From a phage: 2,577 nucleotides of DNA. A program made the position numbers and the translations under genes. Below, piece by piece: positions 1 to 2,577 of this stretch. The number at the start of each line of letters is the position of its first letter. The first letter of the stretch is position 1. The stretch lies in sequence record PZ049715.1. The stretch is one strand, 5' to 3'. The notes below the pieces were generated by a model, which saw only the letters and a list, made by a program, of their open reading frames with translations, searched no databases and was not told the origin of the DNA.

Positions 1-34
1 AACGGTTAATTATTTATAAGGGAATTAATACGAT

Positions 35-100
35 ATAAGCCAATTGTATGATCGTTACGATTGGCTTATGACTGATTTTTCAAATGGCATTCTTTTTTTT
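35..100 (+). terminator. Candidate intrinsic terminator or structured element: 14-bp stem with 7-nt loop followed by T tracts
   Basis: 35-48 ATAAGCCAATTGTA pairs with 56-69 TACGATTGGCTTAT; the single non-Watson-Crick position (45/59) is a G·U pair in the plus-strand RNA. Loop is 49-55. T5 at 76-80 and T8 at 93-100 follow, but the first T tract begins 6 nt after the stem, so the geometry is imperfect. If real, it would terminate a plus-strand gene lying left of the window. On the minus strand the hairpin is preceded by A runs and not followed by a U run. Confidence 0.3.
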
Positions 101-133: not shown

Positions 134-168
134 TTCAGTGGGTAGAGCGTAGGTGTCCTGCCACTGAA
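134..168. repeat. Inverted repeat TTCAGTGG / CCACTGAA (8 bp) around a 19-nt spacer, followed by the 10-bp palindrome AAAGCGCTTT (171-180)
   Basis: Perfect 8-bp complementarity between 134-141 and 161-168; 171-180 is self-complementary. Located 60-95 bp downstream of the Cys-rich gene stop. Neither strand has a U tract after it, so it is not a canonical terminator; it may be a protein-binding site or an RNA-stabilising stem. Confidence 0.3.
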
Positions 169-228
169 TAAAAGCGCTTTCCTACCAAGTCCATAAGATA
201 CCATCTTGGCAGGAAAGCGGCTTGCTGG

Positions 229-558
229 TTATACAGCCATACGTTCACATTCCTCAGCGCACTTCATACAGGCTTTCGCGCACTCTTGGCAGTGATCCAT
301 CTGATGCTTGGCACACTCTTCACCGCAGGCTCGGCAAATTTTTGCACACAATGCACAGAACTCTTTAGCCAACTCGCTCTGGCGACTCATGAGTCTGGCT
401 GCCAGAGCACATATGTCAGCACAATCTCTGTCGAGCTCAATGCAACGGGCCATCGTTTGTACGTCGTCTTCAAGTAAACAGGCAGATGCGCATGCTTCGC
501 AAACTAGAGCGCAGTTAGAACAAGCTTGAATGCAGCTATTGAACATTGTTTCAGTCAT
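229..558 (-). CDS. Cysteine-rich four-helix-bundle copper-binding/storage protein (DUF326, Csp3-like), 109 aa, no signal peptide
   Basis: ORF with ATG at 558..556, preceded by GGAGGA four nt upstream; stop TAA at 231..229. Translation has 19 Cys in 109 aa, arranged in repeated C-x2/3-C runs (CIQAC, CALVCEACASAC, CIELDRDCADIC, CALCAKICRACGEEC, CQECAKACMKCAEEC) in an Ala/Glu/Lys-rich, helix-prone background, which is the hallmark of DUF326/Csp proteins. It sits directly downstream of a Cu-sensing two-component pair. The N-terminus (MTETMFNSC) is not hydrophobic, so the protein is predicted cytosolic. Confidence 0.75.
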   Translation of the reverse strand: MTETMFNSCIQACSNCALVCEACASACLLEDDVQTMARCIELDRDCADICALAARLMSRQSELAKEFCALCAKICRACGEECAKHQMDHCQECAKACMKCAEECERMAV

Positions 559-562
559 GACT

Positions 563-568
563 TCCTCC
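563..568 (-). promoter_or_regulatory. Shine-Dalgarno (GGAGGA) for the Cys-rich gene
   Basis: Minus-strand mRNA reads …ACTTTGGAGGAAGTCATGACTGAA…, with the SD core four nt before the ATG at 558. The TTG at 570 used by the ORF track lies inside the SD itself and is therefore unlikely to be the start. Confidence 0.6.
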
Positions 569-668
569 AAAGTTCGTATTTTAGCGTATAGTCTTGAGCT
601 GGCCTGAGGTGATCCTCTAGCAGCTCATAAATCCGACATATTCAGAGTTCGTCCGTTCCAATGGTTAA

Positions 669-686
669 CATTACAATCGTGTAAGG
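669..686 (-). promoter_or_regulatory. Candidate copper-box operator: inverted repeat TTACA-N4-TGTAA, extended to CcTTACA-cgat-TGTAAtG on the minus strand
   Basis: Plus strand 671-675 TTACA and 680-684 TGTAA are exact reverse complements around a 4-nt spacer; the pairing extends to 669/686 with one mismatch at 670/685. It lies in the cusS-to-Cys-rich-gene spacer, about 110 bp upstream of the ATG, and a weak -10-like TGAATAT (minus, about 645..638) follows some 25 bp downstream. OmpR-family copper regulators are known to bind palindromic boxes near -35. Assignment is by position and symmetry only. Confidence 0.3.
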
Positions 687-743: not shown

Positions 744-2123
744 TTATTGGCGGGGAAATTCCATGTGAAAGCCCGTCACGCCGTCTAATGAGGTGCACCA
801 GATTCTGCCTTTATGGGCCTCAACAATAGATCTGGTAATAGCCAAGCCGAGGCCAGCGTTGCTTGGACTACCCTCGCGCCGGGCAGGATCGACCCGATAG
901 AAGCGATAAAAGAGCTTGTCCAGGTGCTCGGGCTCGATCGTCCCTCCGGGATTCTCGACGCTGAGGGTTACCGTTCTTTCCGCCTCGTGAATCGTTACAG
1001 AAATAGTTTCCCCTACCGGGGTGTAACGCAGCGCGTTGGATAACAAATTGGAGACCGCTCTATCAATCATTAATTTATCTCCCAGCACATTTCCTGCGCC
1101 TGAGACTGAGAGACGGATATCGCGTTCGTCAGCCACTAAGTGGTAATACGCAAGCAGTTTAGCAACGACATCAGCTAGTTCGATAGACGCTTGTTCGGGA
1201 ATAATCAAGCCGTTGTCGGATTTGGCCAAAAAGAGCATGTCGTCAATAATGCGTGACATACGCTTCAACTCCTCTAGATTGGAGTAAAGATTCTCCTCAT
1301 AAGCATCAATATTCCGCTTTTTGGTCAGCACCACCTCGGTGTGGGTCATGAGGTTGCTAACAGGGGTTCGCAGTTCATGAGCAATGTCCGCCGAGAAATT
1401 GGAAAGCCGAACAAAGGCATCTTCCAAGCGATCTAACATCGCATTGAAGGACAGAACCAATTGCTGTAACTCAAGCGGTATCGGTTCAAGCGGCATTCGT
1501 TCCTGCAACGACCTTGCTGACATCGATGCGGCGAGATGGGTAACTTGCCTCAGAGGCCTGAGACCGCTTCTAACTACCATCCAGCCAAGCGCAGCACTAA
1601 TTAGAGCGCTGACGCTTAATCCAACGCCGAACCAACGCTGCAAAGTCTGAAAGAAATGCGCGTGGTTAGTGACATCAAGAATCAACAGTGCTGTAAGTGG
1701 TTCGGGCTGGTCTGCTACCGAGATTCGGGCAGTCAATCCTCTATACAGGCGGCCGGCATATTTCCATTCCCACATATTCTGCTGTTCTGCGTCCCTATAG
1801 CTTTCCGGGACGTCGACTGTCTTGGGATCAGAAAAGAGCACTCTGCCATCTTCGCTCAAGATGGTCGCCGCTAAATCATGATGGGCACCTAGCAGAGCTC
1901 GCAACTGCGGTAGCTCCTCAGCAAGGTTTGCGCTGCTGCGTACGTTATTGAAAATTTTCTTGGTCGATTCGAGCTTCTCCACCAAGGCCTGCCGATCCAA
2001 CACTTCGAAGTGATGCTGGCTAAGCAAATTGAAGCTCAGCCCAGCTATGGTGAGAACTACAACCACCACAGACATGAACATGACACTCATTCGGGCGGTC
2101 AGCGAAAGGTGACGCAGTCTCAC
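744..2123 (-). CDS. cusS: Heavy-metal sensor histidine kinase (CusS/CopS family): TM1, periplasmic sensor domain, TM2, HAMP, HisKA, HATPase_c
   Basis: HisKA H-box [15 protein letters not shown] with phospho-acceptor His at 1377..1379. The following block [27 protein letters not shown] resembles E. coli CusS as I remember it. HATPase motifs: N-box [35 protein letters not shown]2-box [16 protein letters not shown]. Two hydrophobic segments ([23 protein letters not shown] and [21 protein letters not shown]) flank a periplasmic domain of about 130 aa. Start placed at GTG 2123..2121, which overlaps the upstream TGA as GTGA and keeps the family-typical SLTARM motif before TM1; ATG at 2090 is the alternative. 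The track's ATG at 2261 would overlap the regulator by about 140 nt and adds an Arg-rich, non-homologous extension. Stop TAA at 746..744. Confidence 0.92.
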
Positions 2124-2577
2124 TCCGGTGCATCCATCATATAGCCCATGCCACGCACGGTATGGATCAGTTTGTGCTCGAAGTCGTCGTCGACTTTTGC
2201 GCGCAGACGGCGTACCGCGACCTCGATAACGTTGGTGTCGCTGTCGAAGTTCATATCCCATACCTGAGATGCAATCAGAGACTTCGGAAGCACCTCGCCG
2301 CGTCGGCGCATCAACAATTCCAGCAGTGAAAATTCCTTCGCCGTCAGATCAATTCGCTTCCCAGCACGAACGGCGCGGCGCTTTAGCAGGTCCACTTCGA
2401 GATCTGAAATTTTCACGGTGGTTTGGGTGGGGGAGCCGCTGCCCCTGCGAAGCAATGTCCGGACCCTTGCCAGAAGTTCGGAGAACGCGAACGGCTTAAT
2501 CAGGTAGTCGTCCGCGCCCAGCTCCAGGCCTTTGACGCGGTCTTCCACGCCATCACGTGCGGTCAAGAACAGTACGT
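2120..2577 (-). CDS. cusR: Heavy-metal (Cu/Ag) two-component response regulator, OmpR/winged-helix family (CusR/CopR-like); 5'-partial, N-terminus lies beyond the window end
   Basis: The minus-strand frame stays open to the window edge (…[29 protein letters not shown]…); the M at 2566 in the ORF track is an internal TTG, not the real start. Visible are the end of the receiver domain (conserved K in LIKPF) and a complete winged-helix DNA-binding domain ([71 protein letters not shown]). Long stretches match the E. coli CusR sequence as I remember it. Stop TGA at 2122..2120. The symbol is family-level; copR, pcoR or hprR orthology cannot be excluded without a search. Confidence 0.9.

Follow-up and report, generated by a model that had tools for sequence, protein, structure and literature searches.

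A Csp3-type copper storage protein gene with a candidate CusR/CopR box, next to copR and copS on the margin of a mobile copper island

Copper storage proteins of the Csp3 type are known from structures and Cu(I) affinities (PMC5171941), and a distinction between classical and non-classical members has been drawn (PMC10155185). Csp3s protect Escherichia coli from copper by sequestering it in the cytosol (PMC6747150), and deletion of the orthologue in Streptomyces lividans lowers copper tolerance, according to work cited in a review (PMC9470648). However, the Bacillus subtilis protein (BsCsp3) confers no copper resistance in its native host, where it supplies the oxidase CotA (PMC9484137), and the Csp3 of Pseudomonas aeruginosa has been reported to lie outside the copper stress response (PMC9470648). 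Reviews describe the physiological role of Csp3s as largely unknown (PMC9470648, PMC10155185), in agreement with a first-pass annotation of the DNA studied here, which had called the function poorly characterised. Regulation of Csp expression by external copper was considered not confirmed in one of these reviews (PMC9470648).

Here we describe a csp3 gene in a 2,577-nt stretch of the phage sequence record PZ049715.1 (the window). It closes a copR-copS-csp3 module on the margin of a mobile island and carries a box and a terminator of its own. The evidence comes from homologous sequences, the predicted fold, the conserved Cys, the neighbouring genes, and a motif that is both present and conserved. 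Taken as a whole, we consider it probable that this is a classical Csp3, encoded in a copR-copS-csp3 module, induced through CopR and acting by cytosolic Cu(I) sequestration.

The csp3 coding sequence occupies positions 229..558 on the minus strand (the first-pass annotation had named no strand), from an ATG at 558 to a TAA stop, and its translation confirmed the 19 Cys in 109 residues reported by the first-pass annotation. The Cys share is 17.4%, the one residue in six noted there, and the C-x2/3-C repeats are also real, with six CxxC and eight CxxxC motifs (Cys at positions 9, 13, 16, 20, 23, 27, 39, 46, 50, 68, 71, 75, 78, 82, 90, 93, 97, 100 and 104). In 20,000 nucleotide shuffles of the ORF, the mean number of encoded Cys was 3.5 and the maximum 11, so the enrichment is not an effect of composition. 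Spacings from Cys to Cys alternate between 3 and 4, so that within every predicted helix the Cys share a single face. The clustering on a helical face is strong (resultant R ~0.9), with P values of 0.0000-0.0024 for three helices and 0.02-0.10 for the helix that has only 3 Cys.

The reading frame can be extended upstream by at most four codons (to a TTG at 570), which excludes a signal peptide, as had been claimed; inspection of the N-terminal sequence revealed neither an RR motif nor a hydrophobic segment, and the first bundle helix begins at residue 7 in the AlphaFold model. A Shine-Dalgarno sequence, GGAGGA (563..568, minus strand), lies 4 nt upstream of the ATG, and the aligned relatives retain its GGAG. 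Downstream of the gene is an intrinsic terminator (167..219, minus strand) with a 15-bp stem (175-189 / 205-219) followed by CUUUUAUU. Its folding energy is -28.2 kcal/mol (z -3.9), and none of 200 shuffles folded equally well. The 3′ end of a convergent ORF (99-106 aa) is found at 1..70 on the plus strand, with a TAA at 7-9 and a terminator hairpin at 35-69 followed by a T-run; this ORF is not part of the csp3 unit and marks its downstream boundary. When the entire window was scanned against Rfam with E values up to 1, the only match was a chance snoRNA hit inside copS, and no leader RNA or riboswitch was detected upstream of csp3.

The first-pass annotation had recognised the architecture of copper storage proteins, and the profile search agrees: Pfam DUF326 (PF03860, the Csp repeat) matches the protein in three stretches with 57.1 bits (cutoff 20.4). 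A phmmer search against all PDB chains placed BsCsp3 on top (5fig, E 1.7e-28), followed by S. lividans Ccsp (~6e-18) and Methylosinus Csp3 (2.4e-15), with Nmul_A1745, Csp1, RkCsp3 and PA2107 further down. The protein is 54% identical to BsCsp3 over 103 ungapped residues, and all 19 Cys are paired. As the crystal structure of BsCsp3 shows its 19 Cys directed towards the core of the bundle (PMC5171941), all 19 in the new protein are predicted, from this alignment and from the helical face, to lie on helices and face the core, where about 18-19 are expected of a classical Csp3. When 60 homologues were aligned, 13 of the Cys, together with His89 and Met36, proved invariant, and conservation reached at least 90% for the remaining six Cys and for His85 and Asp43. 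AlphaFold2, run with this alignment, predicted the antiparallel four-helix bundle that the first-pass annotation had expected (helices 7-27, 33-58, 64-82 and 88-108) with a pLDDT of 96.3 and a pTM of 0.89. The best Foldseek match of the model in the PDB was Cu(I)-bound BsCsp3 (6wkt_A, TM 0.92, rmsd 1.0 Å), all ranks to 43 were chains of the Csp family, and the first unrelated bundle had an E value of 0.5.

Among NCBIfam models only that of Csp1 (TIGR04401) matched, with 39.8 bits against a cutoff of 100, and this sub-threshold score gives the protein no equivalog-level name. The match covers profile positions 45-150, that is, only the bundle part, and thus the signal region is absent from it. 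The Tat-exported Csp1 and Csp2 were ruled out by this low score and the lack of an RR motif. Since neither a Tat nor a Sec signal is present, the protein is of the Csp3 type, and its earlier assignment to the cytosol stands.

At the open end of the bundle the mouth residues are Met36, His85, Met87 and His89. The three-His motif (alpha3-loop-alpha4) is represented by His85 and His89, and its middle position is Met87, which is the consensus of the clade. Neither the uptake nor the removal of Cu(I) reportedly requires this motif (PMC10155185). By way of the BsCsp3 numbering (PMC5171941, PMC10155185), the mouth residues Cys38, Cys54 and Cys111 of the Methylosinus protein (MtCsp3) would correspond to Cys23, Cys39 and Cys90. 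With the mouth Cys and two liganding His kept, the protein is, judging by its sequence, a classical Csp3; of the classical features that sequence and prediction can address, it appears to have all except the full three-His motif, of which two of the three residues are present. In the alignment, Met36 and Met87 look like a small clade-wide variation at the mouth. The protein is an ordinary member of the known Csp3 family.

Upstream of csp3, both predicted members of the copper sensor-regulator pair that the first-pass annotation had named as neighbours were recovered by profile search. The sensor kinase gene copS/cusS (744..2123, minus strand; GTG start at 2123, alternative ATG at 2081) has the CusS sensor, HAMP, HisKA and HATPase_c domains (Pfam) and matches TIGR01386 with 468 bits (cutoff 292); the kinase gene was also called in loci L001-L006. 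It is preceded by the gene of an OmpR-family response regulator, copR/cusR (2120..2577, minus strand), whose 5′ part is lost at the window end and whose TGA stop overlaps the GTG start of copS. The regulator has Trans_reg_C and Response_reg domains (Pfam), and among NCBIfam models it is closest to TIGR01387 and the copper/silver regulator PRK09836; both scores fall below cutoff because the gene is truncated, and the full-length CopR of loci L002-L006 has 225 aa.

An identical Csp3 protein is encoded by Stutzerimonas stutzeri A1501 (CP000304.1) and by no fewer than five further genomes. All six island-bearing genomes (L001-L006) agree in their gene order upstream. A block divergent from copR-copS-csp3 encodes CopA (a multicopper oxidase), a DUF411 protein, an HMA protein, a P1B-ATPase and a DUF2933 protein, with DsbD in five of the six genomes and, in L002, copB beyond copA. 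Beyond csp3 and the small convergent ORF, the flanks vary among genomes, and csp3 thus lies where a mobile copper island borders on variable sequence. The flank in L002 carries Tn7-like tnsABC, two tniQ/tnsD genes and glmS, that in L001 has IS21-like genes and a group II intron, and that in L004 has a mer operon, the only one among the six flanks. In one genome, the island would be Tn7-like cargo at glmS. Megablast found no match in E. coli genomes and, among plasmids, one copy of 87% identity on a Pseudomonas megaplasmid with a truncated copS, which indicates that neither plasmids nor enterobacteria commonly carry the island.

The linkage of csp3 to copRS is not general and was ruled out as a rule for the family, as only ~20 of the 80 related loci have a CusS/CusR homologue within 4 kb. 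In 70 relatives the genes directly beside csp3 are of mixed kinds, and the copper-related families among them (CusS, CopB, CusF, multicopper oxidase, DUF305 and ATPase) are a minority. Stutzerimonas also has a core csp3 paralogue, 65-72% identical and located between UPF0029/DUF1949 and DUF1826 genes, in which no CusR/CopR box was detected.

The 185-nt spacer between copS and csp3 contains a candidate CusR/CopR box, CCTTACAcgatTGTAATG (669..686, minus strand), an inverted repeat of the form TTACA-N4-TGTAA that starts 126 nt upstream of the ATG. It agrees with the E. coli CusR/HprR box CATTACAAAATTGTAATG (PMC9302797) at 15 of 18 positions, a match reached by none of 200 shuffles. In Pseudomonas, the palindrome of CusR, CopR and CzcR, ATTACA-N4-TGTAAT, was established by DAP-seq, EMSA and promoter mutation (PMC11195947), and CCTTACAcgatTGTAATG fits both this palindrome and the CopR consensus CTGACAn5GTAAT from the same study. 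The box form (A/T)T(T/G)ACA-N4-TGTAAT, for which these reports (PMC9302797, PMC11195947) supply the reference motifs, is present in the csp3 promoter region. We scanned the 20-kb loci L001 and L002 for TTACA-N4-TGTAA with at most one mismatch. Each has exactly three sites, against 0.18-0.35 expected, and all of them are intergenic and upstream of a gene start, namely those of copA, copR and csp3. The site before the oxidase gene copA, CCTGACAgaacTGTAATG, equals the P. aeruginosa CopR consensus CTGACAn5GTAAT (PMC11195947), and that before copR, CGTTACAttttTGTAAGC, lies 66-79 nt upstream of the gene.

Among 86 loci, all 19 that encode a Csp3 of at least 83% identity have both half-sites invariant at 126-138 nt before the ATG. 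The 4-nt spacer of the box varies (CGAT, AGAT, GCAT, ACAT or ATAT), and the sequence around it is only ~56% conserved in these 19 loci. Ten of the 19 have no copRS immediately upstream. Because the box is kept without copRS and in diverged surroundings, we assign it to the csp3 promoter itself and do not regard it as a remnant of the 3′ end of copS. The box was found in 8 of 67 more distant relatives; as these mostly lack it, and as only about a quarter of the 80 loci have a CusRS pair within 4 kb, the predicted regulation of csp3 would be specific to the clade.

A conserved block, TGTCGGATT (630..638, minus strand; TGTCGTAAT or TGTCGTATT in relatives), was identified from the alignment ~30 nt downstream of the box. 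Its consensus among relatives is TGTCG(G/T)A(T/A)T. Judged by conservation, it may be an extended -10 element, an assignment of low confidence. A consensus promoter scan called neither this block nor any other sigma-70 promoter on the csp3 strand. No terminator was found in the copS-csp3 interval, so read-through from copS could contribute to csp3 expression. CopR, CusR and CzcR are paralogues that share the box type, and their binding can activate or repress (PMC11195947); thus, neither the sign of csp3 regulation nor the identity of the regulator is certain. From the sequence, csp3 appears to be switched on by the adjacent copper sensor-regulator pair.

We infer the Cu(I) stoichiometry, the tetramer, CopR binding, copper induction and the detoxifying role of Csp3 in the following scheme. 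CopS would sense Cu(I), and probably also Ag(I), in the periplasm, and CopR would then activate the three box-bearing promoters, those of copA-copB, the divergent region between copR and the P1B-ATPase gene, and csp3. The Csp3 monomer is predicted to be a four-helix bundle in which 19 Cys thiolates line the core. Judging from BsCsp3 and MtCsp3, it should bind ~19-20 Cu(I) per monomer with an affinity of ~1e17 M-1 and would probably be a tetramer. It would sequester cytosolic Cu(I), buffering alongside the P1B-ATPase of the island. The Met/His mouth (Met36, Met87, His85 and His89), intermediate between those of Csp1 and of classical Csp3s, might tune the rates of Cu(I) exchange.

The main rival to this account, which we regard as unlikely, accepts the same Csp3 and differs in its purpose: Cu(I) would be stored to metallate the Tat-exported oxidase CopA/PcoA before or during its export, and not for detoxification. 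The island offers several arguments for such a supply role. Its oxidase has a twin-arginine signal, TRRTFIKGLAATG (containing TRRTFIKGL), and thus folds in the cytosol, and copA carries the same type of box as csp3, so the two would be co-induced. At the same time, oxidases are rare as immediate neighbours of csp3 (2 of 70 relatives), and in loci L010-L013, where csp3 bears the box, the two adjacent ORFs, to which this comparison is confined within the 4-kb flanks, do not encode oxidases. It also counts against this supply role that the acquisition of copper in the cytosol by Tat-exported copper-resistance oxidases is unsettled. On the other side, the feeding of an oxidase is the only native function demonstrated for a Csp3 (PMC9484137, PMC10155185), and the slow release of Cu(I) by Csp3s to chelators fits transfer to a specific partner (PMC5171941).

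It is improbable, in our judgement, that the protein takes up soft metals in general, such as Ag(I), Cd(II), Hg(II) and Zn(II), as a sink that is not specific for copper. A DUF326 protein is strongly over-produced in cadmium-tolerant Enterobacter cloacae, with its mRNA up 14-fold with cadmium (PMC6727835), CusS-type kinases also sense Ag(I), and CzcR-type zinc regulators can use a box of the csp3 type (PMC11195947); in addition, the metal selectivity of Csps is unreported according to a review (PMC9470648). However, the relatives with known structures and thermodynamics all bind Cu(I) in linear two-thiolate sites, which suit this ion (PMC5171941), the neighbouring island genes are all copper-related, and the mer operon that adjoins the island in L004 is found in one of the six flanks only. 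Far less probable still is an Fe-S ferredoxin, a thiol-redox protein or an unstructured metallothionein-like peptide, although the protein is very Cys-rich and one cluster of homologues (P0027) bears the legacy name 'ferredoxin'. Neither Fer4 or similar Pfam/NCBIfam models nor metallothionein Pfam models matched at E<0.01, and the Cys follow a heptad-like 3/4 spacing and not CxxCxxCxxxCP. The prediction is a rigid four-helix bundle of high confidence, whose structural neighbours are all Csps up to the unrelated match at E 0.5; together with the profile result, this ruled out both a metallothionein and a ferredoxin. All parts of the first-pass annotation that could be checked held true, and the outcomes that would have spoken against it, a fold other than a helical bundle or a best match to a metallothionein or Fe-S family, were thus absent. 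In combination, the most likely function of this Csp3 on our analysis is copper-induced sequestration of cytosolic Cu(I).

The value of the finding is modest and lies in regulation and physiology, given that the protein is ordinary. Its new element is the prediction that CopR/CusR controls a cytosolic copper store carried by a mobile island. We propose tentatively, with slightly more doubt than conviction, that a CusRS/CopRS system which senses the periplasm acts directly on csp3, and that the gene travels with a mobile copper-resistance island. If true, a cytosolic Cu(I) store would be hard-wired to copper sensing in the envelope, and the island would provide a tractable Gram-negative system in which detoxification by Csp3 can be set against the loading of a co-regulated Tat-exported multicopper oxidase. 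The conserved box before csp3, common to the oxidase and regulator promoters, leads to a simple prediction of copper induction. Stutzerimonas strains with the island and core paralogues are a natural system to separate detoxification from enzyme supply. Garber et al. 2018 reportedly studied the targets of CopR1, CopR2 and CzcR in P. stutzeri RCH2, and their targets may include this gene. Csp3 is not named among the CusR/CopR targets in PMC11195947, where the terms 'Csp' and 'four-helix' do not occur.

Among described proteins, BsCsp3 (YhjQ; 5FIG apo, 6WKT Cu(I)-bound) is closely similar in size (108 vs 109 aa), and both are without an extra N-terminal helix. Asp42 of the Bacillus protein corresponds to Asp43 here, and its His84 and His88 to His85 and His89, whereas its His86 is replaced by Met87 and its Leu35 by the clade-invariant Met36. 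BsCsp3 is controlled by SigK, expressed during sporulation and feeds CotA (PMC9484137); in contrast, the csp3 gene described here lies in a Gram-negative copper-resistance island, downstream of a candidate CusR/CopR box. MtCsp3 (5ARM/5ARN) and SlCsp3/Ccsp (6EI0, 6EK9) share the Cys-lined bundle (TM 0.87-0.93) and the three mouth Cys that are absent from non-classical Csp3s, and the alpha3-alpha4 loop ligands His104 and His110 of MtCsp3 correspond to His85 and His89. They differ in sequence (36-42% identity in structural alignments) and in an alpha3-alpha4 loop that is two residues longer, and MtCsp3 has an extra N-terminal helix of its own. For SlCsp3, up-regulation at 400 µM copper and a contribution to tolerance have been reported; two-component control has been described for neither protein. 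Csp1 and Csp2 (TIGR04401; 5FJD/5FJE) have the same fold and a thiolate-lined Cu(I) core (TM ~0.89, 30% identity), and the Met-rich mouth of Csp1 resembles the Met residues at the mouth here (PMC5171941). They have a Tat signal and 13 Cys, as opposed to 19 Cys and no Tat signal in this protein.

With regard to regulation, the locus resembles the CusR/CopR regulons, such as E. coli cusCFBA/hiuH, in the regulator family and the ATTACA-N4-TGTAAT box (PMC9302797, PMC11195947). It also resembles the accessory cusRS-pcoA2 locus of P. paraeruginosa, an island that was gained by horizontal transfer and whose two-component system regulates itself. The known targets of CusR/CopR have periplasmic or envelope functions, whereas here, if our reading is true, a cytosolic store would be placed under a periplasm-sensing system.

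On the minus strand of the window, the TGA stop of the regulator gene copR overlaps the GTG start of the kinase gene copS (GTGA, 2120-2123), an arrangement in the sequence which suggests that translation of the two may be coupled. Some public gene calls begin copS at a downstream ATG (2081) instead of this GTG. The multicopper oxidase of the copper island carries a twin-arginine signal, MQSKTTRRTFIKGLAATG (2594-2743, minus strand, in L002, OZ346046.1, one of the public loci that encode an identical Csp3 protein). A canonical CopR box, CCTGACAgaacTGTAATG, is located ~230 nt upstream of the oxidase start in this locus (2972-2985; 1665-1678 in L001, another locus with the identical protein).

The window opens with the last codons of a convergent ORF of 99-106 aa, whose TAA stop is at 7-9 and whose terminator consists of a hairpin (35-69) followed by a T-run (window 1-70, plus strand; L001 10550-10870, minus strand). 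This ORF had no Pfam match and is kept beside csp3 in all six loci encoding the identical protein. Another small ORF, of 63 aa, lies antisense and wholly within csp3 (window 286-477, plus strand; L001 10082-10273, minus strand). The publicly available annotation for the A1501 contig lists this ORF as a gene, probably a spurious call inside the strongly conserved csp3 coding region.

Stutzerimonas genomes encode two or three csp3 paralogues each, as seen in S. stutzeri UBA2301 (L008/L014), S. azotifigens 115A1 (L015, L018 and L023) and loci L022-L033. Copies of the island type have the CusR/CopR box. The core copy, which is 65-72% identical and sits between UPF0029/DUF1949 and DUF1826 genes, is without this box. 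Where box-bearing csp3 genes occur without copRS, as in L010, L012 and L013, their neighbors encode a VKOR-SPW fusion of thiol oxidoreductase type (L010 4543-6018 and L012 4645-6102) and a protein with a cytochrome c domain (L010/L013 2713-3528). Such a context may point to a copper or redox module of another kind.

Stutzerimonas-type csp3 was also found on two MAG contigs labeled "Bacillota bacterium," one 100% identical and accompanied by copS (L007, DAINRC010000175.1) and the other 90% identical (L011, DAINRC010000071.1). The most likely source of these genes is a binning error rather than cross-phylum transfer.

Pseudomonas sp. FeN3W has an intact copper island on its chromosome (L004) and a second csp3 copy, 87% identical, on a 909-kb plasmid (L087, CP136011.1, 6001-7249). 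Only the 3′ part of the adjoining copS remains on the plasmid, and genes for a zeta toxin and an IS5 transposase are located alongside. On the island side that matches the tns genes of L002, the chromosomal locus of this strain has a mer operon, and L001 has IS21-like genes and a group II intron reverse transcriptase. In L002 (11358-20330), the island end comprises copR-copS-csp3 and the small ORF, and is directly adjoined by two tniQ/tnsD genes, tniB (tnsC), tnsB, tnsA and then glmS. The L002 copper island therefore looks like the cargo of a Tn7-like element at attTn7.
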